IMG/VR virus record: IMGVR_UViG_3300031902_000015
Coordinates: 1-44,308 of that record
Origin: a virus
Lineage: Duplodnaviria > Caudoviricetes
Strand: one strand, 5' to 3'
DNA length: 44,308 nucleotides
Both the position numbers and the translations under genes were made by a program. Positions 5,462 through 30,439 of this stretch are shown here, in pieces (the first letter of the stretch is position 1; each line of letters opens with the position of its first letter). The notes under the pieces are model-generated. The model saw only the letters and a program-made list of their open reading frames with translations. It made no database searches and was not told the origin of the DNA.

Positions 5462-5462
5462 G

Positions 5463-13372: not shown

Positions 13373-14854
13373 TCAGCCGTTGGCGATGTTCGTGATGAGG
13401 CCGAACGAGGGCGGGAAGTAGTTCTGCAGCACGCCGTCGAAGTAGATGCCGTACTCGTACTTGCGCGACACACGCGGCCATTCGATCTGCTCGTAGTCCT
13501 TGCGGAGCAGCATCTGCGTGACGTTCGACACGTTCGAGAGCGGGTACGGCAGCGTGCCCGTGTAGAACAGGATCGTGCCCGGCGGGAGGTTCGGGTGCAG
13601 GTGCACCGGGATCTCCTGAGCGCCAGCCATCGAGAACTTGTTCAGGTAGCTGCGGACCATCACGCCGCCAGCGACGACGCCCTGATCCGTGTACTGGAAC
13701 ACGAACCGCTGGGCCGCCGAGCTGTTGCCCGCGAGGATCTTCTTGCCGATGTTCGCCATCTCCTGCGAGGAGACGTAGATGTCGGTCGGCGAGAGTCGCA
13801 GCGCATCCCAGAAATACTGCAGGGCCTTGTCGATCTCGACGATGCCGCCAGCGTTGTCCGAGGTCAGCGTCGTGCCGGTGCCCGCCGTGCCAGTCGCGAG
13901 CGTCTGGACGTAGCCGCCGTAGTTCGAGCCGTAGCAGTGAGTCATCAGGCCGTCGAACACGAGCCCGTTCTTGCTCTGGTCGGACGCGGGCAGATCGGTC
14001 GCGTTCTGGGTGCCCGACGCGGCAGCCGTGATCAGAACCGAATTGATCGTGGTGATCGCACCGAGCAGCTCCGTGCCAGCGGTCGCGCCCCAGTACCATG
14101 CGTAGGCGACGGCGCCCTTGATGACCGGGACCGTGCACGCGAGCGAGCCGGTCGTGCCCGTCGTGGTCGCAGCCGCCGAGGCTGCCGACTTGCGACCGAC
14201 GCCGCCACCGAAGGTGTCCGAGCTGCCGTCGCGATTGGTCCGCGTGACCGACGCCGTGATGCCGCCCGCGACCGTGTAGGCGAGGTAGGCTTCGAGCGTG
14301 AGGCCCGTGACGATGACCGAATGCGTGGTCGACGCGGCGAGCGCGCCCGCCGAACCCGCCGTGACGGTCGGCGCGGTCGCAGTGCCAAGCAGGAGCGAGG
14401 CATTGCCGCCGAGGATCAGCGCCTCTTCCGCGATCATGGTCGAGCGCAGCAGGCCCTCGACCGCAAGCGCCTTCACGTCCTGAAAGCCGTTCGCGGCGTA
14501 GTCCGCCTCGAAGGTCGCGTAGTCCTCAAGGCCGATACCCGCGAAGGCTGCCGTGTAGTTCGCGACGGTCGTCTGAATGGAGCCACCGCGGTTACCCTGC
14601 GAGACGCCAGCCCGGGTGTTCCCCGAATTGATCGCCGTGATCGCGCGCCAGTTGGCCTGCGTACCACCGACGGCCTTCACGCGCGCGGTGCGATTGCGCA
14701 GCGGCGTGTGTACCGGGTAGAGCGTCTTGGCCGGGGCTTCAAGGTTGTAGTAATTGATGCCCTGCACGGCCGAACTGGGCTGGGTCCAGTCCTTGCGCAG
14801 GCCCGTCCCCATGGCGGCCTTGAGCGCGTCGATGATCTGCGAGTTTCCATTCAT
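13373..14854 (-). CDS. Major capsid protein with a Thr/Ala-rich inserted beta domain
   Basis: 493 aa downstream of the protease; YNLEAPAKTLYPVHTPLRN and HLHPNLPPGTI..YFPPSFGLITNI; hairpin downstream. Confidence 0.85.
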   Translation of the reverse strand: MNGNSQIIDALKAAMGTGLRKDWTQPSSAVQGINYYNLEAPAKTLYPVHTPLRNRTARVKAVGGTQANWRAITAINSGNTRAGVSQGNRGGSIQTTVANYTAAFAGIGLEDYATFEADYAANGFQDVKALAVEGLLRSTMIAEEALILGGNASLLLGTATAPTVTAGSAGALAASTTHSVIVTGLTLEAYLAYTVAGGITASVTRTNRDGSSDTFGGGVGRKSAASAAATTTGTTGSLACTVPVIKGAVAYAWYWGATAGTELLGAITTINSVLITAAASGTQNATDLPASDQSKNGLVFDGLMTHCYGSNYGGYVQTLATGTAGTGTTLTSDNAGGIVEIDKALQYFWDALRLSPTDIYVSSQEMANIGKKILAGNSSAAQRFVFQYTDQGVVAGGVMVRSYLNKFSMAGAQEIPVHLHPNLPPGTILFYTGTLPYPLSNVSNVTQMLLRKDYEQIEWPRVSRKYEYGIYFDGVLQNYFPPSFGLITNIANG

Positions 14855-14904: not shown

Positions 14905-16374
14905 TCAGAGCAGCCGGTCAGGGCCGCGCGCGTGCACGGCTTTGATCAGGCTGGCCGTCTTGTTCACTTCCGCACCCGTATGGATCGGCTCTACGGACTT
15001 CATCAGCTCATCCGCGGCGCTGACCTTCGCGACGCTGCCGTCCTTCTCCACTGCAAGTAGCGCGGGCGCGGGCGCCGCGGCGGCGGCCGGTGCCACTTCG
15101 GAATTCGGTGCAAGCCCGAGGGCCTTGATGACGGCGGTGACCGTCTCGGCGATGAGCGCTGCGTTGGAATCAGCAGCGGTGTCCGCCTTCTTCGTCTCGG
15201 GCAGCGTCTGGCCGCACTTCGAGCACTTCGAGTCATCCGGCGGGAAAGCCTTGGCCACATCGGCGGCGGGATCGGCGGCCGGGGCGGTCTTCTCGACGAC
15301 GGCGGTGGTGTCACTCATGATTGATTCCTCGGTCGGTTGCCGTTTCCCTGCGCCGTCAGCCATTGCCATCTCGGGCATCGCCATCGGAGCCAGCGGGACT
15401 ACTAATTCGGTGCCTGCCACAAGTTCGGCGGCCTCTTCCTGCACAAGCGCGATGCCGACTTCCGCGAGATCTGCGATCCGCGCGCGGAGGTCCGCGGGAA
15501 TCGGCGAGACATCACCTTCAGCACTCGCTTCGTACTGCTGGCCCTGCGCAAACACTTCGAGGTCCCGCAGCAGTGCGAAAAATTCGACGACCCCGGCCAT
15601 GCCCTTCTTCAGCTCGGCCCCGCTGGTCGCCTTCCGGTTCGCCGCCTCATCGCGCGGCTCATCTGCGTTCATGCTGTCGCCGTCATCGGCGGGGGCCCCA
15701 GATTTCGGGGTGCGTTTGGCGCGCTTGGATTTGGGATCGCCAGTCCGATAGGCATTGATGCCCTCGGTGGCGCTTGCGGGCGCGACGAAGTCCTTGGCGA
15801 GCAGATCGGCGACGAGCGCCTTCGTGAACTCGGATGCCTTGACTGCGATTTCGTCGACGGTCGCCTTGAAGGGCACGATCAGCACGGAGCCGTCGGCCTT
15901 CTGGACGTTGAAGAATTTCGCCGTGGGAATGCACGGCCGATCCACGATTGAGATCTCGGTGGGCGCCGCGGTGTAGCGCTGCACCTTCGTGCCGTCGACC
16001 GTGTCGGTCCACTTGCGGACGTAGCGGCCACCGATGGAAAACCCGGTGTAGACGCCTTCGAGCACCTTCTGCCACTCGGCGTCGTCGACGATCTTTGCGG
16101 CTACGTCGATGGCTTTTTCGATGTCATCGAACGAGATCTCCGTGACCTTGCCCGCGGCCACCGAGCCGTGCATGGCGCGGACGTTGCCGAGCGACTTGCC
16201 CGCGCTGTCGGCGGACACCTCGGCGCTCCAGCTCTCGAACAGAGGCCGGGAGCTGGCGTAGTCGAAGATCTCGTCGGAGCGGTCGCGGACTTCCTGAGCG
16301 GCCCGGCCATAGACCGTGCGCTGGGGTTCGTCGACCTTGATGATGCGGGCGAAGATCGAGGCTTGATCCAACAT
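14905..16374 (-). CDS. Prohead protease (XkdF/HK97-like) fused to a scaffold region
   Basis: KVDEPQRTVYG, VRAMHG (His), YTGFSIGG (Ser) and EISIVDRP; acidic Ala-rich C-terminal half. Confidence 0.88.
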   Translation of the reverse strand: MLDQASIFARIIKVDEPQRTVYGRAAQEVRDRSDEIFDYASSRPLFESWSAEVSADSAGKSLGNVRAMHGSVAAGKVTEISFDDIEKAIDVAAKIVDDAEWQKVLEGVYTGFSIGGRYVRKWTDTVDGTKVQRYTAAPTEISIVDRPCIPTAKFFNVQKADGSVLIVPFKATVDEIAVKASEFTKALVADLLAKDFVAPASATEGINAYRTGDPKSKRAKRTPKSGAPADDGDSMNADEPRDEAANRKATSGAELKKGMAGVVEFFALLRDLEVFAQGQQYEASAEGDVSPIPADLRARIADLAEVGIALVQEEAAELVAGTELVVPLAPMAMPEMAMADGAGKRQPTEESIMSDTTAVVEKTAPAADPAADVAKAFPPDDSKCSKCGQTLPETKKADTAADSNAALIAETVTAVIKALGLAPNSEVAPAAAAAPAPALLAVEKDGSVAKVSAADELMKSVEPIHTGAEVNKTASLIKAVHARGPDRLL

Positions 16375-16433: not shown

Positions 16434-19400
16434 CTAGTGGACGGTGTCGTCCTCTAAGTCAGCAGCCTCCGGATCGCCCGGGTATACGGTGACGAAATCA
16501 CACTTGCAGTTATGTACTACTATTGAGTCCGCGAGGAACCATCCGCTCACCGTTTCGAGGTTGAACACATGGCCCGAGTAACGCTTTCCCGCGATGACGT
16601 CCTTCACCTGCACGAGCGCTACGGCCGCGGGGAGTCGACTGTGGATCTCGCGAATGATCTCGGCTGCAGCAGCAGTACCCTCCGACACCGATTTGCCCGG
16701 CTGGGTCTGCTTATGCGAAGCCCCCACGAGTACCGGCTCGCCGCCGAGCGGCGCAAGACCCCCGAGCAGCGGCGAGTCGCGGCCAAGGGCGCCGCTCGGC
16801 GCGTCCGCAGCGCCAGCCTCGCCACCCGCTACAGCAACCGCCGAGCCGTCGGCATCGAGCGGCGCGGGCGGCCAATGACCCCGGCGGAAGCCCGGGTCTA
16901 TGCCGTGCTGATCGCCATCGGCGGCCACATCCGCCACGACCGGGCCTTCGGTTCTTACAATGTCGACTTCACCATCGACAACGCCGTCGCCGTGGAAGTC
17001 CAAGACTTCCGTCCTAGCGTTCGTCAACGTGCCACGCAGCGCAAGCGCGTCAAAAAGGTTTTCGCAGCGGGCCTCGACTTCGTAGTCCTCTACCTCCAAC
17101 GCCCGGACCAGAGCGGTTGGATCGTTGGTCTTGAAGATGTAATCGCCGCGTTTGATGTCCTTCGCAGCGACGAATCCTCGCTGCGTCAGTACCGGGTGGT
17201 GCGGGGTGACGGTAAGGTCGGGGTGGTTCGCGACGCGAATGGTGATGACTTCCCCTTCGTAGAAGCGCCGGTACGCGCCGCGAACGCCAGCGGCGGCAAC
17301 GCGGGTGCCTGAGATGACGCAGTTCGGGTGGAAGACCGGGAAGTTGTAGCCGTCGACGAACTCCTCGTCCCACCCGATCACGCCAGCATCGTGGGCGTCG
17401 TCGCACTCGTCGCTCTCGGGCACCTCGGTGTCGTGCTCGGATCCGAGCAGCGTGTACTTGCCGACAGCCCCCAGCTCCTCCGCCGTATGAACTCGCCCGC
17501 CGATATGCGCGAGGTTGAGTTCCGTGCGCGCGATCATGTCTGCGCGCTCTTCACTGAACGCCGTGTTCTCTAGGATCGAGTCGGCCAGCATCTTGGCCGA
17601 GTCGCCGTCGGTGACGGCTTGCTCGATGGTCGAGCGCAGCATGTCGCGGGTGCTCGATTGGATCGACCACTCCGGGTTCGGGTTCACCACCAGCTCGCCG
17701 TCGACCCACTTCATCCCGACCATCTCCGCGCTACGCGCGTCCGCGTAGGCAATGGCATGGACATCGGCCCAGTCGGTCGCGATGTCAACGGCCACGCGAC
17801 CGGCGTCGACGGCTTCGAGCTGCGCGCCGACCTTGAACTGCCGGACCATGTCGGCGTCCACGGCATCGGACACGGCCAGCCAGTTCGCGTCAGTCACGGC
17901 ATCGAGCACGCCGTCGACGATGTCGGCATCGGTCGTTGCCGTGGTGATTAGCGACAGGTAGGACGTGACCCCGGCGTCACTGATGTCCCTGCCGATGGCA
18001 TCGAGCGCCTCGTGGATCTTCACGCGCAGCGCCGCGACGTGTGCCTCGGTCATCGCTTCGAGCGGCGTGACGCCGGGACCCGGGCGATTGAGGACGGCCT
18101 TCGCGAGCTTGCCGATAGGGATTTCGCGCATCGTGCCACCGAGGTGCAGGACCGTCTTCGGCGCCCGCGTCATGACGTCCCATCCCTCGCCGCTGCCAAT
18201 GAATCCAGCTCGCCGATACCAATCGGCCAATGAGCTAGACGATGGACCGCGCTCGCCGTAGTGCTTCGGGATAAGGGTCAGGGTGACGCCATGCTTGTCT
18301 GCGAGATCCGTCAACAGCCCCAGCGCCTTCGATCCGGCGCCGGTCTTGTCTCCGGGCTTGAACGAACGGATGTCGGAAATGTGCGCGCTCGTGCCGTGCG
18401 CGTAGACCTCGATGGCGGCATTGCTTCCCGGGGCGACGCGCTCGCGCTCATTCAGTGGGTTCGTGCTGGTCTGCGCGTGCAGTTCATCCATGAACGACTT
18501 GATGCCACCCCCTCCCGTCCACTGATTGCCATGGAACTCATGCCCGGCAACGTCACCCTTCCTAACCTTGCCGAAGCGCGCGCGCATCGTCTCAAGATTG
18601 AAATGACCCGGGACGTTCTCGCTGCCCGCGCGATACCAAACCCGAACGGGCACGGTCTTGTGGCCGAACTCGGCGGCGAGCGCCAGACGATGATTCCCCT
18701 CGGCGACGTACGCTTCGCCGCGGTGGTTCACTTGGATTGAGATCGGGCTCGTGATGCCGTGCTCTTTCACGGAGTCGCGCAGCGGCGCTCCCTTATCGTC
18801 GTGCGTGATGTTCGGGATCAGGTGCTCGTTGTTCTCTCCGGGCAGCCCTTTCAGCTCATCGACGGGCAGACGGCCAGTGAACCCTGCCGTCACGGCACCT
18901 GAAACCTTCATCTTCGATGCTTCGGCTTTTGCCTTCTCGCCCTCCTCCCAACTGCCGCGCGGGTTGTCGAAGAAGACGCCTTTGACCTGTGCGGGTTGCG
19001 ATCCGGGCCCGTCTGCACCGCCGTCGGTGTATTGATTGCCGTGAAACGCATGACCCGGGACGTCACCCTTCTGCACGCTTTTCAGTACGCTCTTCAAGCG
19101 AAGCACGGATCCCGATGCGACCCGGTACTCACTCTCCCCGGCCACGTACTTGCCCTGTGATCCCGGCTTGGTCTCGAACTCAAGCAGCTTGATGTCGCTG
19201 CGTGGAGTTGCCGCGAACTTGTTCCAGTCATTGGTGAAGAACGCAGGATTGGCCGGGCCCCCGGCCACGTCTCGCCAGAACAGGGAGCGGTTGATCAACT
19301 CGGCCTTCTGGTGAACACGCTCCTCGCTCGTGGACGCGCGCTGCATGAATCCGCCAACGAGGTGCGCGTCACCCAGATCCTTCGCGTTCACGCCCTGAAA

Positions 19401-20198
19401 GGACAGCCGCAGGGCCACGCTCTCCGGTGGCGTGTCCTCGCCCACGAACCACGAGCGCGTGCCGTTCAGCGTGTCGTAGAGTTGCGAGGGCAGGCCGTCG
19501 ATGCTCCGTGCTGATTCGCGCGAATACGTGTCCAAGAGGTTCGAGTACGACGGCCCCTTCGCATCGGTACCGTCCTTCGCTTGCTGGACGAGATCCTCCG
19601 GTGTGATCTTGCCAGTCATCACGTCGTGTGCGAGGAGCATCCCATTCAGGTACTGATCGGCCATCGCACGATCACTGGTCAGGCTGATCGTGTCACTGGT
19701 GCCTCCACCGATACCGGAGGTGTTCCCGGACTCGTCCCGCGTCTTGAGCCCCTCGACCTGAACGGCGTCGCCTGCACTGGTGACGTGATAGAGCGTGTCG
19801 GGCAACGGCTGCCACGGATAGCCCTCGCTGTTAAAGAACCCGAGCGTGCGCGCGTCCTCCTGAGTAATGTCGCCTTGCGTCAGCGCCATCACCATCGAGC
19901 GATCCCAGTCGGCTTCCTTCTGCCGCCATGCTACAGCCTCCGGCGAGTTGTAGTCGCCGACGGCCGGGTACGGTCCCACGAATTCTTTCCTCGGCGTTTT
20001 CCACGCGTCGGACGTGGCTACGTTCGGCCACGATCCGCCGCCACCCGTCCACTGATTCCCTCGAAACTCATGTCCGGGTAGATCGCCCTTCTCCAGCGCT
20101 TCGTCTGACTCCACAAGATCAGCATCGAAGAGCGGCTCCTCATCGTTGAGGAACCCGCCGTCTAAGTGAGCGCCACCCTCAGCGCTTCTTGCGCGCAT
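16434..20198 (-). CDS. MuF (SPP1 gp7-like) minor head protein with three N-terminal tagged modules (ART-like, ParB-like, GNAT) and an intein
   Basis: MuF core from ~18131: RADMIARTELNLA..C..PVFHPN[intein]CKC; three tag copies upstream. Confidence 0.88.
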   Translation of the reverse strand: MRARSAEGGAHLDGGFLNDEEPLFDADLVESDEALEKGDLPGHEFRGNQWTGGGGSWPNVATSDAWKTPRKEFVGPYPAVGDYNSPEAVAWRQKEADWDRSMVMALTQGDITQEDARTLGFFNSEGYPWQPLPDTLYHVTSAGDAVQVEGLKTRDESGNTSGIGGGTSDTISLTSDRAMADQYLNGMLLAHDVMTGKITPEDLVQQAKDGTDAKGPSYSNLLDTYSRESARSIDGLPSQLYDTLNGTRSWFVGEDTPPESVALRLSFQGVNAKDLGDAHLVGGFMQRASTSEERVHQKAELINRSLFWRDVAGGPANPAFFTNDWNKFAATPRSDIKLLEFETKPGSQGKYVAGESEYRVASGSVLRLKSVLKSVQKGDVPGHAFHGNQYTDGGADGPGSQPAQVKGVFFDNPRGSWEEGEKAKAEASKMKVSGAVTAGFTGRLPVDELKGLPGENNEHLIPNITHDDKGAPLRDSVKEHGITSPISIQVNHRGEAYVAEGNHRLALAAEFGHKTVPVRVWYRAGSENVPGHFNLETMRARFGKVRKGDVAGHEFHGNQWTGGGGIKSFMDELHAQTSTNPLNERERVAPGSNAAIEVYAHGTSAHISDIRSFKPGDKTGAGSKALGLLTDLADKHGVTLTLIPKHYGERGPSSSSLADWYRRAGFIGSGEGWDVMTRAPKTVLHLGGTMREIPIGKLAKAVLNRPGPGVTPLEAMTEAHVAALRVKIHEALDAIGRDISDAGVTSYLSLITTATTDADIVDGVLDAVTDANWLAVSDAVDADMVRQFKVGAQLEAVDAGRVAVDIATDWADVHAIAYADARSAEMVGMKWVDGELVVNPNPEWSIQSSTRDMLRSTIEQAVTDGDSAKMLADSILENTAFSEERADMIARTELNLAHIGGRVHTAEELGAVGKYTLLGSEHDTEVPESDECDDAHDAGVIGWDEEFVDGYNFPVFHPNCVISGTRVAAAGVRGAYRRFYEGEVITIRVANHPDLTVTPHHPVLTQRGFVAAKDIKRGDYIFKTNDPTALVRALEVEDYEVEARCENLFDALALRGTLTNARTEVLDFHGDGVVDGEVDIVRTEGPVVADVAADGDQHGIDPGFRRGHWPPAPLDADGSAVAVAGGEAGAADAPSGALGRDSPLLGGLAPLGGEPVLVGASHKQTQPGKSVSEGTAAAAEIIREIHSRLPAAVALVQVKDVIAGKRYSGHVFNLETVSGWFLADSIVVHNCKCDFVTVYPGDPEAADLEDDTVH
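16509..17321 (-). mobile_element. Intein (271 aa) in the MuF HPN|CxC motif
   Basis: Begins CVISGTRV, block B LTVTPHHPVLT, block F VFNLET, ends VVHN followed by Cys; excision restores HPNCKC. Confidence 0.92.
16569..17312 (+). CDS. Antisense HTH plus DUF559/Vsr-like endonuclease inside the intein
   Basis: GAGG 8 nt before ATG; HTH GESTVDLANDLGCSSSTLRHRF; MTPAEARVY..FGSYNVDF..VAVEVQ PD-(D/E)xK-like pattern. Confidence 0.75.
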   Translation: MARVTLSRDDVLHLHERYGRGESTVDLANDLGCSSSTLRHRFARLGLLMRSPHEYRLAAERRKTPEQRRVAAKGAARRVRSASLATRYSNRRAVGIERRGRPMTPAEARVYAVLIAIGGHIRHDRAFGSYNVDFTIDNAVAVEVQDFRPSVRQRATQRKRVKKVFAAGLDFVVLYLQRPDQSGWIVGLEDVIAAFDVLRSDESSLRQYRVVRGDGKVGVVRDANGDDFPFVEAPVRAANASGGNAGA

Positions 20199-22551
20199 AG
20201 ATCAGCCCCAGTTCCTTGGACAGCCGCGTCAGCGCGACGTGCTCCGGTATAGGTTTCGAGCGGTCACGGCCCGCCCGGACGTTGTCCCTGCCGATCCCTT
20301 CCTGCATCGTGCGCAGCGCCCGGCCTACTTCGAGCTGCTGAGGCCAGCTTTCGCCGGGCCCGGGTCGCATGGTGTGCACGTACTTCGGCGTCACGGCGCG
20401 CAGCTCGCGCAGATCGAGCTGATACGCGAACTCCATGTCCGTCAGCGAGATCACGGAGCCGTTCGGATGGTTGTGTGTGTACGTCACGTCCTTGCCACGC
20501 ATCGCCGCCATCTGTTCAGCCGTGTGGTAGACGCTGGTCGCGTTGCCAACGACGCCGCGCTCGCCGAACATCGCCGTGCCGTCGGGTAGCAGCGCGAGCC
20601 CGTGCTCGATGTGATCGCCCGCGTGCGCGGCCTCGAAGTCCGTGAGCTTCTTCTGAACCTCGGCGCTGTGGCCGCCGGTCCATTGATTGCCCCTGAACTC
20701 GTGGCCGGGTAGATCGCCCTTCTCGACGATTGTCCTGACAGTCGTGATGCGGACCAGACCGTTGTGGCCGTTGTCCCACAGCACTCTTACCTGATGAAGA
20801 GAGCGATGCGGGAGGACGCGCTGGACAGTGCCCTTCATCCCACCAGACGAAACGACACGGTCACCGACCTTCGCCCATTCACTTCTTGGCGTTGACGTCC
20901 ACTGGTTTCCGCGGAATTCGTGCCCCGGCAAATCACCTTTACCGAAGCCCTCGCGGTCGCGCGTGACGAGGTCGCGAATCATCGCCGAGGTGACTGGCTT
21001 CGAGCCGACGACGCGTGATGCGGGCACCTTGCCGGATGACCGCACCCATGGGCCCTTCGAGTTCGCCTGCGTGAGCGGATCGGACGTGTCGATCTTCCAC
21101 TTGTCCCGCGCGCCCGTCTTCATCTCGACGATGGAGATCTTGCCAGTGCCCATGCCCTGATTGAATTCCCAATCCATCTTGCCAGCCCAGCGAACCGCGT
21201 CATCCTCGTGCGTGAACGCGAACACATCACCATCGCCGTAGCGCTCTTTGTTCCCAGCCTGTACCCAGTTCGTGTCCTGCATCGGCAGCAGACCGCGGGC
21301 CTCGATCTCTTTCGCCGTCTCGGTACGCGTGACGTGGTAGATCGAGGTGCCAGCGCCGGGCGTCCACTGGTTTCCGTGGAATTCGTGGCCCGGCAGATCG
21401 CCTTTCTTCACTGGCATCGGCGCATCACACACGACTAGATAGATGCGGCCATCCTTATCAGATTTCGCAAGGCGCTGCCACTTGCCGTCGACCACGCGCG
21501 AGCGCACATGAATCCAGCTCGCCGGGATGTCGCGATTGACCTCCAGCACCGTTGCGGGCTGGCCCTCTATGAAGTCCTTCGTCGCTCGAATGACCGTGTC
21601 GCGACGCGCCGACTCGGGTAGCTGAATCTCGAACACGACCGCGTTGTAGGGCGGGACTCCCGGCCTCGTGTCGTCGTGGCTGCCGCGGTCCTCGGCGTAG
21701 CGCTCCGCGAGACGCAGACTGCGCGTGGTGAACACCGGGTTCGGCATCTTCACGTCGGCGCGCTTCAATCCCTGCCGCGTGATCTGCGTCTCGAACTCCT
21801 GCGCGGTGCCATGGAACACGGTCGTGTCGCCGTGTCCGCCGTCGACCCACTGGTTCCCGCGGAAGTCATGGCCCGGCAGATCGCCCTTGCTGAAATCCGC
21901 GTGCTCGGCCAACCCGACGCGCTCATAACCCTTGAAGCGGCCGAGATTGCTGCCAACCGCATCCGCCAGATCCCCCGGACTGATCGCCGCGCCCTCGGTC
22001 AGTTTCCACTTCTTGCTGAATCCTGCCTTTTCGAGCGCGTCGTGCATGTCCTTGTGAAGGCCCGCGCCCGCCGGGAACGCGACGTCGACGTTCGGACCTT
22101 CGAGCGTGCGCAGATCGTAACCGCCTTCGCCGCCGTGATCGGCCTCGTACTCGCGGACCACATCGGCATAGCGCTGGGCATCTTCCACCGACACGGGCGA
22201 CACGAGGATCGGGATGTTGCCCTTCAGCAGCCCCGTCATCTGATTGCCCTGCGGGCCGCGGCCCTTGATGTCGTTTATGCCCGGCTGCAGCGCGTCGCCC
22301 TTGCCCTTGCGTTCCTTGCGCGCTTCGCGGATCGCATCCTTGATCGCGCTGTGATCGACAGAGGGCGACGACTCGGACGTCCCCTCGTCGCCGTCCCACC
22401 GGCCTTCTTCGTCGCGAGACTGGTCGGGATTGAACTCCTTCGCCAGATCGTCCGCGTCATCATCGAAGTAGTTCTCTGGCAGCCCGAAGCCGAGCGCCAT
22501 CGCATGGCGTTCTTCGCGAGTCTGCATCTCTGGCATCAGGTAGGAAGTCAC
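20179..22551 (-). CDS. Multi-domain tagged polyprotein: unknown, ART-like, ART-like, SH3-like, JAB
   Basis: VFHGT..GL..VFTT; IYHVT..GLLP; KVGDRV..KGTV..VLWDNG; THNHPNGSVISLTD; each domain follows a tag. Confidence 0.85.
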   Translation of the reverse strand: MTSYLMPEMQTREERHAMALGFGLPENYFDDDADDLAKEFNPDQSRDEEGRWDGDEGTSESSPSVDHSAIKDAIREARKERKGKGDALQPGINDIKGRGPQGNQMTGLLKGNIPILVSPVSVEDAQRYADVVREYEADHGGEGGYDLRTLEGPNVDVAFPAGAGLHKDMHDALEKAGFSKKWKLTEGAAISPGDLADAVGSNLGRFKGYERVGLAEHADFSKGDLPGHDFRGNQWVDGGHGDTTVFHGTAQEFETQITRQGLKRADVKMPNPVFTTRSLRLAERYAEDRGSHDDTRPGVPPYNAVVFEIQLPESARRDTVIRATKDFIEGQPATVLEVNRDIPASWIHVRSRVVDGKWQRLAKSDKDGRIYLVVCDAPMPVKKGDLPGHEFHGNQWTPGAGTSIYHVTRTETAKEIEARGLLPMQDTNWVQAGNKERYGDGDVFAFTHEDDAVRWAGKMDWEFNQGMGTGKISIVEMKTGARDKWKIDTSDPLTQANSKGPWVRSSGKVPASRVVGSKPVTSAMIRDLVTRDREGFGKGDLPGHEFRGNQWTSTPRSEWAKVGDRVVSSGGMKGTVQRVLPHRSLHQVRVLWDNGHNGLVRITTVRTIVEKGDLPGHEFRGNQWTGGHSAEVQKKLTDFEAAHAGDHIEHGLALLPDGTAMFGERGVVGNATSVYHTAEQMAAMRGKDVTYTHNHPNGSVISLTDMEFAYQLDLRELRAVTPKYVHTMRPGPGESWPQQLEVGRALRTMQEGIGRDNVRAGRDRSKPIPEHVALTRLSKELGLIYARKKR

Positions 22552-23063
22552 AGCTTCGGCCCTCCGAGGTCAGAGTAGACCCGCATCACGTCCGCATCGA
22601 AGCTGCGACCCGCGCGCGTGGCCGCGTAGACCTCCGCCACGTACTCCTGCCCGTTGGTGCCTGCATATCTGCTCACCTTTGCGGCAGTCGTCTTGAAGTA
22701 CGGGTTGCTGTTGCCATTCGTGTTGGTGCGGTACGAATCCTTGTCGATGCCACCGCCGCGCTTCGACAGCACATGGCCCAGCTCGTGGTAGACGATGTGA
22801 TTGGGGTCGGGCGATGACTGCCAACCTGCGTCGAACGCCTTCTGCTGATATTCGACCATGTTCTTCCACACGGCCGAGGACTTCCGGTTCGTGTTTACGA
22901 GGATCCCGTTCCCGTTGGCGATTGCTAGGACGTTGCTGTCCAGCGTGCGCTTCTCGATGGGCACGCCGTCGATCTCGCTCGGCATCGTCTTCAGCGAGCT
23001 GAAGTTGCCACCGCTATCCCAGCGTCCGTGATCATCGCGGGACTGGTCCGGGTTGAATTCCTT
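22396..23063 (-). repeat. Two copies of a second coding tag KEFNPDQSRDxxGRW
   Basis: 22396-22440 (KEFNPDQSRDEEGRW) and 23019-23063 (KEFNPDQSRDDHGRW). Confidence 0.9.
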
Positions 23064-25598
23064 GCGGACGTCATCGCGCTTCGTGACCTTCGCGCCGATG
23101 CTGTAGCGGATGCGGTAGTCATCCTTGAGCGTCGCCCAGTGCCCGGGATGGATCTCCCACGGCATCACGTCGACCGCGTACACGCGCATGTCGCGCTGCC
23201 GTAGCCCGCGGTCGTGCGCTGAAAAGCGCCGCGCCTCGCGCTCGGACGTCGCGAGCTGCGAGCCCGCGCGCAGCGAGTCGATCTGCATGTTTGGCGAGCC
23301 GTGATAGAAGTGATACGAGCCGTTCAGGTTCTGCGCGACCTTGCTGTTCGTGAGCCACTCGGTCGTGACTTGCTCTTCAGTCATCCCGCGCGCGAACGCG
23401 TTCGTGCTCGGCTGCGTCCATGAATCCGGCGGCGTCCTGCGAGAGTCCGAGATCCCGCCGCCCGTGTATTGGTTCCCGTGGAATTCGTGCCCAGCGACAT
23501 CGCCTTTCGTAACGTCCGGGGACGTCAGATCGTATGAGCCGACGTTCCCGACCGCGGACTTCACTTGGCGCGAGCTGAAAACGATGTAGTGCGTCGTGTC
23601 GCGGTTGACGCCGACCATCGGCTTCGTGCGACCGCTTTCAGAACCCCACTTCTTCGATACGGTATGGTCGATGATGCCGTCGTAGCCCGTTTTCACAAGT
23701 GCTTGGCGCACGACCTCGTTGCCGATCAGACGGCCGGTGCTCGAATCTTCAACATACTGCGCGGCTTCCTTGCCCATGGAGATCATCTTCTCGGCCGTGG
23801 CGCCACCATCGAAGGCCACATCCATCATGCTGCTGAGTTTGGCCCGCGCCTCTGTCTGCGACGCGTCGCTTGCATCCATCCCCGCGCGCACGGCCGCTAC
23901 GAATTTCAATCCCTGCTTCTCGTCCATGTACGTCGGATTGTCACCGCCAAGCACGACAGGATTCACCATGCGCGCGTAGAGCGGCATCACGTTCGCTTGC
24001 CGCCCGTTCAGTTCTGTTGACGCTTGATCCAACGCGCGCTGATCGCGGAAATCCCATTCGTTCTCCGACGCTATCTGCTCCGCACGCAATTCGATTCGAT
24101 TGGTTAGATCCGGGCCCTCCCCCGCATAGTTCGCGCTCGCGTCCTCCGGGTTGTCCGTGAGATAGATCCCGGCGCCGTGGTCCGCGTCCTGCTGTCCTTG
24201 CTTGGGCTGAAACTCGGCGATGTCGTGCGTCGTGCCGTGAAAGACGACCAGCGGATGGCCGATCTCATCGACCACTTTTGAATCGCCGAACCAAGCCTTG
24301 AACTCGGGCGACCCGGTGCCGCCAGTCCACTGGTTCCCTCTAAATTCGTGGCCCGGCAGATCGCCCTTCTGCACGGCCGAATCCATATCGACGATCACCT
24401 TCGCAGGGATCGACTTGTAGCCCATGCTGGCCAACGCGCGCAGCCGATGCTGGCCTTCGAGCACGGCCCAGTTCCCATTGGCGAAGAGCCCGACGTGCAA
24501 CGGCGCAATCTTGCCGCTCGCGCGAATGGCGACAGCAAGCGCCGAGATGCGCGCCTGCTCCTTCGCTCCTGAATAGAGCGGATCGTTGTAGGTCAGGGCC
24601 CCGTCATCCGCAGGGACGGGCTCGACCGGCATTTCACGCACGCCGGGAGCTACTTCGCTGTCCTCGAAGTTCGAGCTTGCGACCTCGTGTACGTCATCGG
24701 TCTCCGTAGTGAGTTCGAGATCTTGGAACTCCGAGATCCGCGGCATCGTATCGAGCACCGCTTGCTGATCCGGGGTCGCGTCCTGATACCACGCGCCTGT
24801 CGGCTTCGGCGGATCCGGCGGGTGCTCGATGTCGCCGCCATGCCAGCCGGGCTTCTCGCCGCCGGTCGATGCGAGGTCTTGCTGCCCGCCATTGCCGGTC
24901 CACTGATTCCCCCGGAAGTCGTGTCCGGGGAGGTCACCTTTCGTCACGGGCGGCGCGAACCAGTTCTTGCTGTGCCCCTTCAGGTCCGCGAGGATCTGCG
25001 CATCGGGCGTGCTCAGCGGCCACTTGCCCGCGCGACTCAATCGGGACGTGTCGTTGACCGCGATCTCTGTGCTGCCAATCGGCAGCGGCTCCGTGACGAA
25101 CGGGACCGTGTTCTTCTCGCGCTGATCCTGTGCCCATGACGTGCGCGGCAGCGCTGCGTACGCCGCGGACCGCTCGGGCCCGACCGGCAAGGCGTTGGCT
25201 GCTGCGTAACGGACCGACAACGCGCGGTCTTCGGGCATTCGCAAATTCTCGTTGAACATCTGGCCGAGCTGAAGCACGTCGCCCGGCTTCATCTCGACCT
25301 CGAAGGCATGGAGCGTTGGGTCGCTGCCTCCGTATTTCTCTGCGTAGATGCGCGCGTACGGGAGCGCGGCTTTCGCTTCTTCCTCGGTCGCGGCGACGTA
25401 GCCGTAGATGCCATTTCCCAGCGGTCGAAGAATCTGCGACGACCCGCCTCCCTCGCCTGTTCCGACGGAGAGCTTGTCTGGCACGTCGAAGTTGTGCCCG
25501 CCGTGGATGATGATGTACTTCTGGCTGTAGCCGCCGTCAGTCCACTGGTTGCCGTGAAACTCATGACCCGGAAGATCACCTTTCGCTAGATTCCGCAT
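22548..25598 (-). CDS. Multi-domain tagged polyprotein: ART-like, ParB-like, ART-PolyVal-like, ART-like, zincin metallopeptidase
   Basis: IHGG..GTGEG..GIY; EGQHR; WFGDSKVVD..VFHGT..GYDGII..VF..QVKSA; FYHGS; HELGH..SRYA..EYVAE; start trimmed to MRNLAK. Confidence 0.85.
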   Translation of the reverse strand: MRNLAKGDLPGHEFHGNQWTDGGYSQKYIIIHGGHNFDVPDKLSVGTGEGGGSSQILRPLGNGIYGYVAATEEEAKAALPYARIYAEKYGGSDPTLHAFEVEMKPGDVLQLGQMFNENLRMPEDRALSVRYAAANALPVGPERSAAYAALPRTSWAQDQREKNTVPFVTEPLPIGSTEIAVNDTSRLSRAGKWPLSTPDAQILADLKGHSKNWFAPPVTKGDLPGHDFRGNQWTGNGGQQDLASTGGEKPGWHGGDIEHPPDPPKPTGAWYQDATPDQQAVLDTMPRISEFQDLELTTETDDVHEVASSNFEDSEVAPGVREMPVEPVPADDGALTYNDPLYSGAKEQARISALAVAIRASGKIAPLHVGLFANGNWAVLEGQHRLRALASMGYKSIPAKVIVDMDSAVQKGDLPGHEFRGNQWTGGTGSPEFKAWFGDSKVVDEIGHPLVVFHGTTHDIAEFQPKQGQQDADHGAGIYLTDNPEDASANYAGEGPDLTNRIELRAEQIASENEWDFRDQRALDQASTELNGRQANVMPLYARMVNPVVLGGDNPTYMDEKQGLKFVAAVRAGMDASDASQTEARAKLSSMMDVAFDGGATAEKMISMGKEAAQYVEDSSTGRLIGNEVVRQALVKTGYDGIIDHTVSKKWGSESGRTKPMVGVNRDTTHYIVFSSRQVKSAVGNVGSYDLTSPDVTKGDVAGHEFHGNQYTGGGISDSRRTPPDSWTQPSTNAFARGMTEEQVTTEWLTNSKVAQNLNGSYHFYHGSPNMQIDSLRAGSQLATSEREARRFSAHDRGLRQRDMRVYAVDVMPWEIHPGHWATLKDDYRIRYSIGAKVTKRDDVRKEFNPDQSRDDHGRWDSGGNFSSLKTMPSEIDGVPIEKRTLDSNVLAIANGNGILVNTNRKSSAVWKNMVEYQQKAFDAGWQSSPDPNHIVYHELGHVLSKRGGGIDKDSYRTNTNGNSNPYFKTTAAKVSRYAGTNGQEYVAEVYAATRAGRSFDADVMRVYSDLGGPKL

Positions 25599-27037
25599 AC
25601 CAGCGCCTTGCCTACTGCGCGCTGCGCGATCCCCCACTTCGCGGCGAAGGCGTTCGCTTCCTTGAGTGCGGGAATGACCGTGGTCCCGGTGCGGTAGACC
25701 TTGATGCTCATCGACTTGCCGGAGGCGTACTCACTCGCCACGGCCGCCGCCCAGTAGTGGTGACCGTCGATGATGTAGTTGTCCTTGGTGACCCAGATGC
25801 GGCGATCCTTCATCTCGCCAGCCGCCATCTTCGCCATGATCGCCGCAACCTTCACGCCGTCCAGCTCGCGCTGCGATGGGCGCAGGTACGCGGGGTCTTC
25901 CTTCTCCTTGCTGACGCCGTCGTTCTTGCCCAAGTGATGGGCGAACTGATCATTGAGATCTATCTCGCCCTTCTTGTCCTTCGGCAGCGCGTCCCCGCGT
26001 GATCCCGGCGTCGGCTTGCCCGACAACTGCGGCATGTCGAGGCGCGCGATCCCCATGCTCCCGGCGCAGAACAGGTTCGTGTTTTGCACCGACACATGGC
26101 ACAGGTCATAGACCTTCTTCTCGCCGCTCTGCGCTTCCTTGCCGATGGCGGCCAAGCGATCCATGAAGACGGCAACTTCGCGCGGCTGGTCGAGCACGAC
26201 ATCCTTGCCCTCGCCCACGAGCTTCACGGCGAGATCGAGATTCCCTTCGACGTGGTAGCGGCCTTGAGCATCTGGCTTGCCATCGCCGCCGCCTTCGGTC
26301 CACTGATTGCCATGGAACTCATGACCGACGACGTCGCCCTTGGCTACTCCGTCTTCGGCTGCGTCGGCTGCAGCGCCATCAGTTCCGCGATCTCCTCCTC
26401 CGTCGCCGGGCGCCCCGAGATCTGCTCGAACAACTTCAGCACGTTTTCTGGCTTCTTCGCCTCCGCGCCCGTCATCAGCGTGAAGACCACCGGATTCTGA
26501 TCCGTCTTGTTTGACATAGCGGGCTCGCGCCTCCGGCTTGATTGAGACCTCGGACATCGTCTTGAAGCTGAACGCAGCAATCTGATTATGCTTCATGCCG
26601 ATCTTGATCGCACTCGCGCGCGACTTCGTGAGCACGACGACATCGAGGAAGATCCGGCCGCTAACCTTGTCGTGCCACGTCCCGAACGAATTCTTCGGGT
26701 CATCGAGCAGATCGGCATTCTTCTCGATGAACTTGTGCAGCATCGCCGGGGTCGTCTGCTTGACCGTGTGGTTCGTCCCGCGCTCAGGGTATGCGCTCAC
26801 CGAGAACACGTTGTCGCCGGGCTTCGGCGATTCGTGCGTGTGCGGCTGGTACGTCAGCCCCTGATTCTTGATCGTGCGCGCGAGCATCCCGCGGTCGGTC
26901 ATGCCACCGCCGCCGTCCTGCCACTGATTGCCGTGGAACTCGTGACCCGCGACGTCGCCCTTCTCGATGAGCGCCCTAATACCAGCCTGCAGACGTGGGC
27001 TTATAGGGCCAGTGAAAGGGACCCATGCTGCCCGCAT
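25586..27037 (-). CDS. Tagged polyprotein: SAM-lyase-like domain plus ParB/Srx-like domain
   Basis: GTWHD..IFLDV..AIKIG..HNQIAAF; LRPSQRE..IIDGHHYWAA; start at MRAAW uncertain. Confidence 0.8.
   Translation of the reverse strand: MRAAWVPFTGPISPRLQAGIRALIEKGDVAGHEFHGNQWQDGGGGMTDRGMLARTIKNQGLTYQPHTHESPKPGDNVFSVSAYPERGTNHTVKQTTPAMLHKFIEKNADLLDDPKNSFGTWHDKVSGRIFLDVVVLTKSRASAIKIGMKHNQIAAFSFKTMSEVSIKPEARARYVKQDGSESGGLHADDGRGGEEARKRAEVVRADLGAPGDGGGDRGTDGAAADAAEDGVAKGDVVGHEFHGNQWTEGGGDGKPDAQGRYHVEGNLDLAVKLVGEGKDVVLDQPREVAVFMDRLAAIGKEAQSGEKKVYDLCHVSVQNTNLFCAGSMGIARLDMPQLSGKPTPGSRGDALPKDKKGEIDLNDQFAHHLGKNDGVSKEKEDPAYLRPSQRELDGVKVAAIMAKMAAGEMKDRRIWVTKDNYIIDGHHYWAAAVASEYASGKSMSIKVYRTGTTVIPALKEANAFAAKWGIAQRAVGKALVCGI
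26344..26517 (-). CDS. Nested alternative-frame small protein (57 aa)
   Basis: MSNKTDQNPVVFTLMTGAEAKKPENVLKLFEQISGRPATEEEIAELMAL...; fills the low-complexity linker of the host ORF. Confidence 0.55.
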   Translation of the reverse strand: MSNKTDQNPVVFTLMTGAEAKKPENVLKLFEQISGRPATEEEIAELMALQPTQPKTE

Positions 27038-28904
27038 CGCCCTCCTGCGCGTCGGACTTGCGGGCTGTGGCATCGAGCCCGTGCTTGCCCTTCAGGTAGC
27101 CCTCGATGTGCTTCGCCCCGACATCTTGCGTCCGGCCGTCGGTGTCGGTGAGCCGGTAGTTCGTGGAGCGTGTCGAGGGGTCATAGCCCAGCGGCTTCAT
27201 CGTCAGCCCACGCTCGGCCAGCGCATGGATCGCCGTGACGATATTGACCTTCGCGCGCGCGTTGAGGGGCCGCCCCTCCTTGGTCTTGAGCGGGCCGCCG
27301 CTGCCGTTGACGAACTGATTGCCGCGGAAGTCGTGGCCCCCGAGATCGCCCTTTTTGGCGTCGTCGGCAGCTTTCTTCGGCGGAACCTTATCCCCGGGCT
27401 TGGCAGCCCCGCCAGCAGCCGGGGGCTTTCCACCCGGGGGCGTAGCATCGCCCGGGGGAGCGCCTCCCTTGGGCGGCTCTCCGGGCTTGGGCGGCTCCCC
27501 GCCCGGACCCATCGGCGGCGCGGGCTCCCGCAGTCCCGGGGCCGTGCCGTCCGCGAACTTCTCGACCGGGACCGGGCCCGACCCCGTCCAGATCATGTGG
27601 CCAACCCCGATGGGCTCCTGCCCCTTGCGCTCCCGGACCTCGTCGACCGACAGCACGCCCAGCTCGATGTACGTCTTGTCGATCCCCGACTGCGCCTCGG
27701 CCGAGATCTCCGTCTGCACGTTCCAGCGGAACTGCAGATCCGCCTCGCCGAGCTGCACATTGATGATCGCCGTGAACTCATCGCGCAGGTAGTTCATGAG
27801 AGGCAGCAGCCCCTCGGCCACCGCGGTCTCCTGCTGCGTGCTCGCCGTTGCGCGATTCACCATGCGCAGGAACGGCATCGGCGACAGGCTGAACGCGTAG
27901 CACATGATCCGGATGAGCCACTCGTCGAAGTCGCCCTTGAGCGTGTCTTCCCCAGTGCGGATCGGCAGCACCTTGAGGTTGCCCGGCACGAACTTGGCGT
28001 GACGACGCGCGGCGCTGTTGCCCTCCAGCATCGCGTCCCAGTACGTCTGGAACTGCGCAATCTGCTCGGGCAGCCAATCCTCAGGCACCGAGATCAGGGC
28101 CTCAGGGATGTTGCCCTCGGTGAAGAACTGCAACTGCGACAGCTCGCGGCGCAGCCCGATGTTCACCGTCATCATGATCTGCTCGACCGGGCTCAGGCCG
28201 TACAGCCGGAAGCTCGCGGGATTCCTGATCCGGTACTGCAGCTCCTCGCGCGTGTACGTGCTCGCGGGCACGCCCTTCAGCACTTGCCGATACGCAGGCA
28301 GCGGTGGCTGTGGCGTGCGGCCACTGATGTCGATCAGGCGCGTGATCGTCGCGGCGTCGACCTGTTCGAGCGCGACCAGCTTCTTGCCCTTGTAGACCGG
28401 CCAGTGCGCGACCGCATCGAGCACGAACATATCTTCGAGGTAGGAGCGCAGCCAGCCGTGCCAGTTCAGCTCGGTCGACGGCTGCTTGAAGAACGCCGTG
28501 ACCGCGTCGATCTTGGCCTTGGTCGCGGCATCGGTCTTGCGCTGGTCGGCCTCGTCCTTGGGAACGATTGACCACTCGTAGCCGCAGATCTCGTCCTTGC
28601 GCGTCTCGATGATGAGGCGCAGCAGATCGTAATTGCCCGCGAGCCCGCGCAGCTCTTGGAACGTGACGCCCGTCTCGCGACGCGGCTGGATATAGAGGTT
28701 CTGCCCTGCCATGTAGTCGAAGGCGCGGCCCGCGGTTTCCTGATGCGTCGCAGGGATCGGGTCTTCAGGCCCGAACCAGCCACCCGAGAGCGCGTAGCTC
28801 ACGGCTTGGCCGAGTCGCTTGAACACGCCCGGACGGTCGGCGCTCGGCGGCAGTTTCATGGGAACGAGGTTTTGGCTCATGGCGTCTTTCCAGTCATTCC
28901 GCAC
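26976..28904 (-). CDS. Portal protein with a Pro-rich linker and a tagged C-terminal extension
   Basis: LRGLAGNYDLLRLIIETRKD, YGLSPVEQI, FFTEGNIP and GVLSVDEVRE..G.EPI. Confidence 0.92.
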   Translation of the reverse strand: MRNDWKDAMSQNLVPMKLPPSADRPGVFKRLGQAVSYALSGGWFGPEDPIPATHQETAGRAFDYMAGQNLYIQPRRETGVTFQELRGLAGNYDLLRLIIETRKDEICGYEWSIVPKDEADQRKTDAATKAKIDAVTAFFKQPSTELNWHGWLRSYLEDMFVLDAVAHWPVYKGKKLVALEQVDAATITRLIDISGRTPQPPLPAYRQVLKGVPASTYTREELQYRIRNPASFRLYGLSPVEQIMMTVNIGLRRELSQLQFFTEGNIPEALISVPEDWLPEQIAQFQTYWDAMLEGNSAARRHAKFVPGNLKVLPIRTGEDTLKGDFDEWLIRIMCYAFSLSPMPFLRMVNRATASTQQETAVAEGLLPLMNYLRDEFTAIINVQLGEADLQFRWNVQTEISAEAQSGIDKTYIELGVLSVDEVRERKGQEPIGVGHMIWTGSGPVPVEKFADGTAPGLREPAPPMGPGGEPPKPGEPPKGGAPPGDATPPGGKPPAAGGAAKPGDKVPPKKAADDAKKGDLGGHDFRGNQFVNGSGGPLKTKEGRPLNARAKVNIVTAIHALAERGLTMKPLGYDPSTRSTNYRLTDTDGRTQDVGAKHIEGYLKGKHGLDATARKSDAQEGDAGSMGPFHWPYKPTSAGWY

Positions 28905-29208
28905 GAACCGGCAGGATGCCAGCGAGCGTAAGGATCTTGCCCGATGTGGAGGTCGTCACCCTCACCTTGATGTCGTAGTCCGTCTGATCGAGCCCGCCCG
29001 TGACGCCGACCAGCACCTTCGTATTGGTGGCGTCAATGGATTTGGAGCCGGTCAGGACCGCCGCGGGCGTGGCATCAGTGCCGAAGGCGACGAGGCAGGT
29101 GACGGTCGCGACCGCGAGCAGCGTCTCCCCAACTGCGAGCCCAAGCGCGAAGTCGAAAGTGAGCACGACGCTCTCGGCCGGATCCTTGATGTCGAATCTT
29201 GTTGTCAT
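28894..29208 (-). CDS. Putative fibre adaptor / virion structural protein (104 aa)
   Basis: KDPAESVVLTFDF..GETL..VTGG..Y.I..TS pattern; beta-rich; located in the fibre cluster. Confidence 0.6.
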   Translation of the reverse strand: MTTRFDIKDPAESVVLTFDFALGLAVGETLLAVATVTCLVAFGTDATPAAVLTGSKSIDATNTKVLVGVTGGLDQTDYDIKVRVTTSTSGKILTLAGILPVRAE

Positions 29209-29396
29209 CACGTCATCCGTCTGGTGAAGGCCCGCGCCTTGGCGGCGACCGAGAACAGCCGAACCTTGGCCGCGACCGTGAAATCCCTCGCCATCAGCGT
29301 CAACACGTAGCGGGCATCCGTGACGAGACGGATCGAGCCATCCCACAAATAGAAACGACTGCCGAACGAAACGCTGGTCTGCGAAAAATTCCACAT
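29208..29396 (-). CDS. Hypothetical protein (62 aa)
   Basis: Fills the operon gap; TGATG stop/start coupling with the next gene. Confidence 0.5.
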   Translation of the reverse strand: MWNFSQTSVSFGSRFYLWDGSIRLVTDARYVLTLMARDFTVAAKVRLFSVAAKARAFTRRMT

Positions 29397-29402
29397 GACG
29401 CG

Positions 29403-29537
29403 TTAGACCTTCTTGATGCCTTCGGCGACGGCGGCAAGCGCCGCGTCGATCTTCGTTGCGTTCTTGCGGAACACTAGCGCGCCAGCAACGAAGCCGACGA
29501 TGAGGCCAACTACCAAACCGTAAATCATATCTTCCAT
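29403..29537 (-). CDS. Small single-pass membrane protein (44 aa)
   Basis: AGGAGG RBS; MEDMIYGLVVGLIVGFVAGALVFRKN...; below the ORF-track length cutoff. Confidence 0.7.
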   Translation of the reverse strand: MEDMIYGLVVGLIVGFVAGALVFRKNATKIDAALAAVAEGIKKV

Positions 29538-29538
29538 T

Positions 29539-29910: not shown

Positions 29911-29911
29911 G

Positions 29912-30229: not shown

Positions 30230-30414
30230 GCGGCCTCCGCGAGCAGTACGGGCGGCTCGACCGCCTGCGCGTCTGCGTCGGCCTTCGCCGCCGTCGCGAT
30301 GATCTTGGCAAGATGCACGGCCGCTTCCGCCGCCTGCATCCCTGCCGCTTTCACGGCGAGGTCGATCAGGTTGAGCAGGACCGCCGCTTCGTTCTGGTTG
30401 AGTTCAATTTTCAC
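30226..30414 (-). CDS. Small helical fibre-associated protein (62 aa)
   Basis: GTG start with AGAGG; KIELNQNEAAVLLNLIDLAVKAAG. Confidence 0.65.
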   Translation of the reverse strand: MKIELNQNEAAVLLNLIDLAVKAAGMQAAEAAVHLAKIIATAAKADADAQAVEPPVLLAEAA

Positions 30415-30439
30415 AATCTCTGTCCTCTGTTGGTGAAGG

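Follow-up and report, generated by a model that had tools for sequence, protein, structure and literature searches.

Conserved peptide tags behind predicted prohead-protease sites in a putative head-operon cargo array of a peat-soil phage

The window analysed here is the whole of the 44,308-base virus record IMGVR_UViG_3300031902_000015, which originates from peat soil and whose DNA is present in peat metagenomes, with no RNA holder of it listed. Between the portal and MuF cores of its head operon lies an array of 16 protein modules, each of which opens with a conserved peptide, the tag, directly after a lysine. We suggest, with a probability of roughly 0.55, that these modules are head cargo that would be cut apart by the phage's own prohead protease, and that the tag freed in this way would act as a signal for exit from the head with the DNA.

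The tagged array and its tag in other phages

A six-frame search of the whole window returned exactly 14 copies of GD(L/V)xGH(E/D/A)F(H/R)GNQ(W/Y/F), the main tag, and two of EFNPDQSRDxxGRW, the second tag, all of which lie on the minus strand, in frame and within five overlapping open reading frames (ORFs) at 16434-28904, with none outside. From composition, 5e-5 copies of the main tag are expected; the tag array is real and far above chance expectation. Lys stands directly before 16/16 tags (background Lys frequency 0.051), V, I, L or F occupies P3 in 15/16 junctions, and Gly-rich linkers come after the tags, in agreement with an earlier note on this DNA that had described 14 + 2 tags in five overlapping ORFs, each after K and followed by a Gly linker. 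The portal ORF (26976-28904) holds one tag, the stand-alone ORFs at 25586-27073, 22548-25637 and 20179-22551 hold two, five and five, and the MuF ORF (16434-20198) holds three. The array measures ~9.3 kb, or 21% of the contig, matching the ~9 kb given earlier, and its modules range from 73 to 340 amino acids (aa) and from 8 to 37 kDa. Leaders precede the first tag in each stand-alone ORF, a point absent from the earlier note. By the same six-frame search the portal core, MuF core, protease and capsid protein of this phage are untagged. The gene order on the minus strand is terminase, portal, three large ORFs, MuF, protease-scaffold, capsid protein and tail genes. Pieces of the array, the 22548/22551 junction among them, recur without differences in contigs from four runs (three possibly from the source sample), and no indel is listed within the array among the contigs of other runs matched to these pieces. 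The ORFs, their modules and the associated head genes are as follows (arrows mark predicted cuts; ART, ADP-ribosyltransferase).

26976..28904 (-), portal protein with a Pro/Gly-rich linker and one C-terminal tagged module (Pfam Phage_portal E 8e-17; phrog_2662 E 1e-62)
26979..27350 (-), module 1, 124 aa, no domain assigned; tag at 27312-27350 after DAKK
25586..27073 (-), polyprotein 1, 495 aa, leader and two modules; the alternative start 27037 has a better Shine-Dalgarno (SD) sequence
26339..26959 (-), module 2, 207 aa, tentative S-adenosylmethionine (SAM)-lyase-like label by motif; tag after LIEK
25589..26338 (-), module 3, 250 aa, ParB/sulfiredoxin fold with DGHH motif (Foldseek E 0.03); tag after GVAK
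22548..25637 (-), polyprotein 2, 1029 aa, five modules; possible start 25598
24939..25580 (-), module 4, 214 aa, ART-like by motif only; tag after NLAK
24366..24938 (-), module 5, 191 aa, ParB-like (Pfam ParB_N E 5e-5, PHROGs); tag after PVTK
23505..24365 (-), module 6, 287 aa, ART-PolyVal ADP-ribosyltransferase (Pfam PF18760 E 9e-20); tag after AVQK
23061..23504 (-), module 7, 148 aa, ART-like by motif only; tag after DVTK
22551..23060 (-), module 8, 170 aa, zincin-like HExxH metallopeptidase (Pfam Peptidase_M91 E 2e-4); second tag after DVRK
20179..22551 (-), polyprotein 3, 790 aa, leader and five modules
21886..22437 (-), module 9, 184 aa, no domain assigned; second tag after DLAK
21403..21885 (-), module 10, 161 aa, KptA-like ART (KptA model E 0.01; own, partly circular profile); tag after DFSK
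20938..21402 (-), module 11, 155 aa, ART-like (own, partly circular profile); tag after PVKK
20719..20937 (-), module 12, 73 aa, small beta domain, SH3-like by motif only; tag after GFGK
20182..20718 (-), module 13, 179 aa, JAB-like HxHxHP..S..D motif with no library match; tag after IVEK
16434..20198 (-), MuF protein, 1254 aa: leader, three tagged modules, untagged LAK↓A junction, and MuF core with intein (Pfam Phage_Mu_F E 1e-8)
19068..20087 (-), module 14, 340 aa, ART-like (own, partly circular profile); tag after ALEK
18558..19067 (-), module 15, 170 aa, ParB-like (Pfam, PHROGs); tag after SVQK
18099..18557 (-), module 16, 153 aa, GNAT-like (phrog_10691 E 0.002); tag after KVRK, end at the untagged LAK↓A before the MuF core
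14905..16374 (-), XkdF/S78-type prohead protease fused to scaffold, His69 and Ser113 motifs (PHROG head maturation protease E 1e-9)
13373..14854 (-), probable major capsid protein (by position and phrog_13692), N-terminal candidate sites ALK↓A and LRK↓D, no tag
33294-34664 (-), terminase

No cross-matches between the 16 modules were found at E<=1e-3, which upholds their earlier description as unrelated, but they group into about eight types rather than 16. The labels given earlier are well supported by matches for module 6 (ART-PolyVal), modules 5 and 15 (ParB-like) and module 8 (zincin-like), and moderately supported for module 3 (ParB/sulfiredoxin fold), modules 10, 11 and 14 (ART-like) and module 16 (GNAT-like; phrog_10691 also matches a Pfam-confirmed GNAT), whereas modules 4 and 7 (ART), 13 (JAB) and 12 (SH3-like) carry tentative, motif-only labels. 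For module 2 no sequence match to a SAM lyase and one stand-alone homologue were found, and the SAM-lyase fold comparison gave 6zm9 at rank 3 (E 0.31) and 7ock_L at Z 2.8 (root-mean-square deviation 5.8, 93 aligned). The Pfam S78_2 match of the window protease (E 0.003) falls below the cut-off, and no solved-structure relative of the protease domain was found by sequence.

A profile built from 60 tags, seven residues of which are invariant, was searched against 1.84 billion cluster representatives (E<=0.001) and matches 1,872 protein clusters at 50% identity, while the exact degenerate pattern occurs in at least 188 IMG/VR stretches (~340 estimated), often many times per contig. Many of 60 matches in genome contigs lacked an in-frame W/Y/F after GNQ and were excluded as probable chance. 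None of the Pfam, PHROG, NCBIfam and PADLOC models includes the tag, and a search of the literature, mostly of non-subscription papers, found neither the tags nor a retained tag behind a prohead-protease site described, in line with the earlier note, which knew of no assigned function for the tag. Short-peptide tblastn yielded no match for the main tag and one weak match for the second in cultured phages or plasmids; with the tag plus its adjoining domain as query, the sole cultured match was Xanthomonas phage Rb1 (PQ569993), a cultured tag carrier.

The tag core lies a fixed 4 residues past Lys in 191/214 sites and heads modules with a median length of 244 aa (287 modules). AlphaFold, given 11 tag-plus-ParB sequences, predicts a folded domain (mean pLDDT 84) and a disordered tag (pLDDT <50 for residues 1-4 and 9-18). 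The synonymous positions of the 14 main tags in the window agree at 0.47, against 0.59 predicted by codon usage (99.9% of simulations were higher), and since the codons diverge beyond this prediction, selection appears to act on the peptide. The same low agreement counts against the tag being a DNA repeat that anchors recombination in cassette swaps, a barely credible model to which the shuffling of modules between phages and the frequent likeness of variable tag positions inside one phage would lend themselves; it was rejected for the window, where tag codons are less alike than codon usage predicts.

The same cargo families reappear behind the tag in unrelated phages, the modules being swappable or shuffled, and a single cargo family can follow Lys, Leu, Phe, Ala or a start codon in different phages. 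The tag occurs in portal-, MuF-, protease- and DarA-type proteins and with at least three portal families, with or without MuF. The earlier view of modular cargo with tags at the starts of variable domains in head loci is thus borne out, except that the tag is half of a two-part junction, the Lys before it being the likely cut, and that it also occurs outside portal-MuF loci, PF04233 having no match in three complete or near-complete genomes that bear it. Nor is the tag universal, as had been claimed, as at least three further peptide types, and hybrids with the main tag, occupy the same junction position. These comprise GGxGSG(NFGHxGRPGExGGS), FNPxQxRDxxG[RQ]W, QPRxPAGxxxGGQW and hybrids (L015, L155, L063, L380, L117, L127; P0003-P0122), the GGxGSG type accounting for 27 sites in 120 relatives of the window protease. 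Small basic head-operon proteins of the cultured Nocardia phage P3.1 (L423:6487-7708) begin with RDxxGR[FW], resembling the second tag.

In the relatives L424 and L429 portal and MuF form one gene without an array, and the main tag is present in 0/14 portal-relative loci. Taken with the untagged structural cores, these fused relatives mark the system as accessory. The array lies exactly between the portal and MuF cores, as if a fused gene of the L424 and L429 kind had expanded and split.

Predicted cut sites and head proteases

In T4, SPN3US and phiKZ, the prohead protease recognizes a short P3-P1 motif followed by a small P1-prime residue and cuts shell, scaffold and internal proteins there (PMC9026906, PMC10052503). 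The Lys before each tag is probably such a site, a point that the earlier note had missed. The window protease-scaffold itself holds eight [VILF]-x-K-[GAS] sites, and in the scaffold tails of 113/120 relatives of the window protease, [VILF]-x-X-[GAS] is enriched for X=K only (622 vs 189, z 29; next best z 1.8). Among the matches listed in the first scan, the residue before the tag was K in 163 of 251 contexts, followed by L (37), S (18), A (10), F (6) and M (5); the second scan was deliberately enriched for non-Lys cases. In 144 independently found multi-tag proteins, the pre-tag residue agrees in 661/824 pairs (0.80), compared with 0.39 when shuffled.

This residue follows the protease family, which most likely reflects cutting by the head protease. 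Forty of 185 contig groups with the GD tag have a protease in the available DNA, called in many cases with our own hidden Markov models (HMMs), a subset being confirmed by Pfam. Lys is the majority residue in 14/15 groups with an XkdF protease (the other having Arg), in 0/14 with a Mu-I-type protease (Asn, Ala, Leu) and in 0/11 with a DUF2213-type protease (Asp, Ala/Leu); the Fisher value, 6e-10, is inflated, being uncorrected for kinship. Asp before the tag in L248 predicted a DUF2213 protease, and DUF2213 was found. In addition, a three-residue pre-tag profile with the own group left out chose its own class on the protease/scaffold ORF in 23/36 loci, where ~8 are expected from the margins. 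In Verrucomicrobia Mu-like prophages (L414:8570-10489, L398, L390, L372 and L362, one of them in an Akkermansia muciniphila genome) the tag comes after Asn and the scaffolds repeat xAN/xVN; in L414 and L398 it lies in the portal tail, ahead of PBECR nuclease domains, and in L362 within the protease.

It has little probability that the chains are instead cut by the zincin of the array, or enter the cell whole as proposed for polyvalent proteins, with the tag part of that recognition. Iyer et al. 2017 propose autoproteolysis by MPTase domains (PMC5512222) and module 8 is zincin-like, but a zincin occurs in just one of the five ORFs, the pre-tag residue tracks the head-protease family and fills the scaffold, and a start-codon form of the tag exists. 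That the tag starts exactly at P1-prime, and that stand-alone M-GD genes exist, would also suit a tag that extends the recognition site of the head protease on the P-prime side, or one left over without function from earlier gene starts. Either is very unlikely given that sites in scaffold, capsid and MuF core are untagged, that one tag serves at least four protease families, and that seven residues are invariant in 60 tags while the codons diverge.

In P1-like phages the tag follows the acidic site class used by the P1 protease. There it stands after xLD, xFD or xMD in DarA orthologues, the majority of which have an N-terminal InPase (L422:6808-10473 in phage Rb1, L383, L384, L228, L217, L415 and L408). 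The sole site of this class in P1 DarA, LLE68↓A69, aligns with LMD↓AV and LLD↓AV of tag-bearing orthologues, in which the tag follows ALD↓ or AFD↓. In the cryo-EM study the model of P1 DarA begins at residue 70, the missing stretch being attributed to removal by the prohead protease (PMC12810830); in P1 gp23 the cut falls at E120↓S121 (PMC9024508). This anchors the cut, though not the tag, indirectly in experiment. In the Rb1 protein XPA09464.1, a cut after Asp735 would free the N-terminus GDFSGHPFRGNQH. A His/Ala-rich helical module is headed by the tag in Rb1 and L383 and is found in L362 as well; L194 and L215 have similar repeats. E. coli P1 DarA, DdrB and Hdf have no tag. No DarA, Hdf or DdrB Pfam match was found in the five window ORFs; such domains are present in L217, L228, L383, L384, L408 and L415.

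A full scan found ATG directly before the tag in 12 stretches on four contigs (L351/L354, G001; L353/L356, G002; L049; L355), so that the tag is at codon 2 in 12/115 first tags, all on these four contigs without a detected protease. These tags open stand-alone genes behind SD sequences, seen in three contigs, and Met removal would yield the same Gly-Asp N-terminus. In G001, MuF, an SPP1-type scaffold and a P22-type coat are contiguous. Such a head type needs no protease; three of the four start-codon contigs, G001 among them, were searched and have no match to four protease families. In contrast, 0 tags follow a start codon in the 40 groups with a protease, where the leaders before first tags are 5-65 residues long, finish with the pre-tag residue typical of their phage and often recur inside a phage, L016 having five near-identical ones. 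Leader families of 11-25 residues shared before first tags (L016, L003, L076, L115, L246 and the L179 group) are candidate loading propeptides resembling the capsid-targeting sequence (CTS) of T4.

Possible role of the tag

Each module opens with its tag directly after Lys, and the predicted cut precedes the tag, so that the tag would remain on the freed domain. We suggest the following course of events. Fusion to portal and MuF, together with the leaders, would quite probably carry the chains into the prohead. There, the XkdF-type protease would very probably cut the 16 tagged junctions and the untagged LAK↓A before the MuF core into pieces of 8-37 kDa. The exposed tag, predicted to be disordered, may then, at about even odds, serve as a short linear motif through which each piece docks at the exit route, either the portal vertex or the DNA end. 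Judging from the domain families, the ARTs, ParB-type nucleotide enzymes, GNAT, zincin and JAB domains could act early against host defences or on host machinery. As a universal reader of the tag, MuF was rejected: PF04233 has no match in Rb1 (complete), G006 (99%), G013 (91%) or G011 (76%), and a further set of incomplete records was mostly blank for it as well.

The earlier note had also given the tag a part in capsid loading. Read as a loading signal only, recognized in prohead assembly, the tag would need a cut merely to separate domains and no signal for exit. This is unlikely, even though the stand-alone genes of the start-codon phages have no other visible signal and loading is what the T4 CTS and the N-terminus of P1 DarB serve (PMC9026906, PMC9024508). 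Tags persist on modules that already form part of a portal or MuF chain, and on every inner module; phages that encode a protease place a separate, often shared leader ahead of the first tag; and the tag core keeps its distance of 4 residues from Lys in most sites. Because modules that are already loaded each keep a tag, its job most likely comes after the cut, and because portal/MuF fusion and separate leaders explain loading better, a role in ejection or anchoring is likelier than one in loading. Anchoring would have the tag tether or condense the freed domains in the head, on DNA, the inner shell or each other, as retained structural or storage cargo with passive release or none. P1 DarA-Hdf binds the inner capsid and DNA (PMC12810830), and the occurrence of the tag with at least three portal families, with or without MuF, points to a universal partner such as DNA or the tag itself. 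Tethering is nevertheless improbable, as the tags are neutral or acidic, unlike DNA-condensing peptides, and the cargo consists mostly of enzymes whose substrates (NAD+, acetyl-CoA, nucleotides) would sit in the host cell.

Several points weigh against the exit-signal reading and the predicted cuts beneath it. Many protease calls come from our own HMMs, L372 and L373 having no Pfam family, and 145/185 contig groups have no protease in the available DNA; protease families are clades, so that the covariation represents few independent events. The pre-tag profile missed 13/36 scaffold loci, and the generic scaffold pattern is weak per locus (pooled z 3.0 for K, 2.5 for N, 2.0 for D and 1.9 for A, with nothing for the Leu classes). 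Exceptions are L190 (XkdF, Arg/Val) and L183, where the tag follows Val and one lies near the C-terminus. Lysine sites of the same pattern occur inside some modules, where folding would have to protect them. A head domain was found with our HMMs in 32 of the 150 best tag proteins, the rest having no context. The start-codon contigs are 8-43% complete, leaving the protease possibly outside the record, and in these phages the tag alone may also load. The untagged P1 DarA, DdrB and Hdf mean that cargo can leave a head without a tag. Finally, the exit-signal step, for which the chances appear even, is drawn from tag position only.

For the ejection of non-core proteins from siphoviral and myoviral heads, the known signals (T4 CTS, P1 DarB) only load. 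A retained tag unmasked by a protease is a testable candidate for a post-maturation signal. The tag also gives a sequence handle that lists candidates for virion-delivered anti-defence proteins (the 1,872 clusters), helps to read domain boundaries in polyvalent proteins, and could, through the residue before it, predict the cut specificity of uncharacterised head proteases. More speculatively, and with clearly lower confidence, the interchangeable N-terminal peptides (GDxxGHxFxGNQW, FNPxQxRDxxGRW, QPRxPAGxxxGGQW, GGxGSG...) might form a portable phage export code, unmasked by any head protease or start codon and read by a universal virion part, that threads any 10-35 kDa domain out with the genome. 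If true, this would be a phage counterpart of a secretion signal, graftable onto foreign proteins.

Other features of the window lie outside the tag system. The MuF protein contains an intein of 271 aa, absent from the earlier note, which is a passenger. A candidate homing endonuclease is encoded antisense within it, and a literature search on an antisense intein gene found no paper.

16509..17321 (-), intein in the MuF HPN↓CKC motif, arrow here marking the insertion point (Pfam Intein_splicing E 6e-6)
16569..17312 (+), codon-aligned antisense ORF inside the intein, resembling helix-turn-helix plus DUF559-like nuclease (atlas rows 0.91-0.95)

Terminase and portal are separated by genes for a 918-aa fibre-like protein and a gp77-like adaptor (28894-33196, minus strand), an unusual location for them. 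Gene-transfer-agent (GTA)-like baseplate genes (DUF2460, BR0599, Rcc01698) occupy 2126-7373 on the minus strand, and a CI-like repressor is encoded at 39731-40435 on the plus strand. The contig has no end repeat.

Comparison with known systems

Among the closest counterparts of the array are phage polyvalent proteins and portal/MuF-fused effectors, which are head-operon multidomain proteins with ART-PolyVal, ParB, zincin and GNAT domains that are proposed to be packaged and injected (PMC5512222, PMC9503650). Disparate activities share one polypeptide, with ART, ParB-like and zincin-like domains in 22548-25637; the repertoire agrees, PF18760 at E 9e-20 and the ParB, HExxH peptidase and GNAT-like matches more weakly; and the array stands in a terminase-portal head module with terminase, portal, MuF and protease. 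In the available text, processing is put down to an MPTase within the proteins themselves, and neither a junction tag nor a prohead-protease site at each domain boundary is mentioned (PMC5512222, PMC9503650).

In T4 internal proteins and Alt, with a CTS cut by gp21, and in phiKZ and SPN3US propeptides, a leader loads, the prohead protease cuts a P3-P1 motif common to head proteins and the mature protein is ejected (PMC9026906, PMC10052503), as is predicted here, where leaders ending in the phage's own P1 residue precede the first tags. In these phages, however, the conserved signal is removed, after Glu, whereas here the tag is C-terminal to the predicted cut, stays on, and repeats with each polyprotein domain after Lys, the protease being of XkdF/S78 type rather than gp21 type. 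The tag is also common to unrelated heads and proteases, unlike the T4, phiKZ and SPN3US signal. The Dar system of P1 shares head-borne anti-restriction cargo processed by the prohead protease (PMC9024508, PMC12810830), and DarA orthologues in other P1-like phages bear the same tag, but P1 DarA, DdrB and Hdf themselves are untagged, and the window, whose head is of another kind, contains no Dar domain.

Jamet et al. reportedly described MuF polymorphic toxins of temperate phages in 2017. These likewise comprise enzymes fused to MuF beside the portal, but as one toxin C-terminal to MuF with an immunity gene (PMC12226406). In the window, three modules behind predicted cut sites precede a C-terminal MuF, and in place of an adjacent immunity gene the protease gene begins 60 bases past the MuF stop. 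MuF-ART fusions without a tag have been noted as well (PMC7302621). Thus, the array fits those features of polyvalent proteins that can be tested, stands apart from the T4 CTS proteins in its retained signal and other protease, and does not belong to the MuF polymorphic toxins. Protease-processed head cargo was already known; what is new here is an undescribed tag retained behind a predicted prohead-protease cut, and the additions specific to this tag are the comparison across protease families, the form behind a start codon, and the P1 DarA alignment together with a cultured phage for tests.

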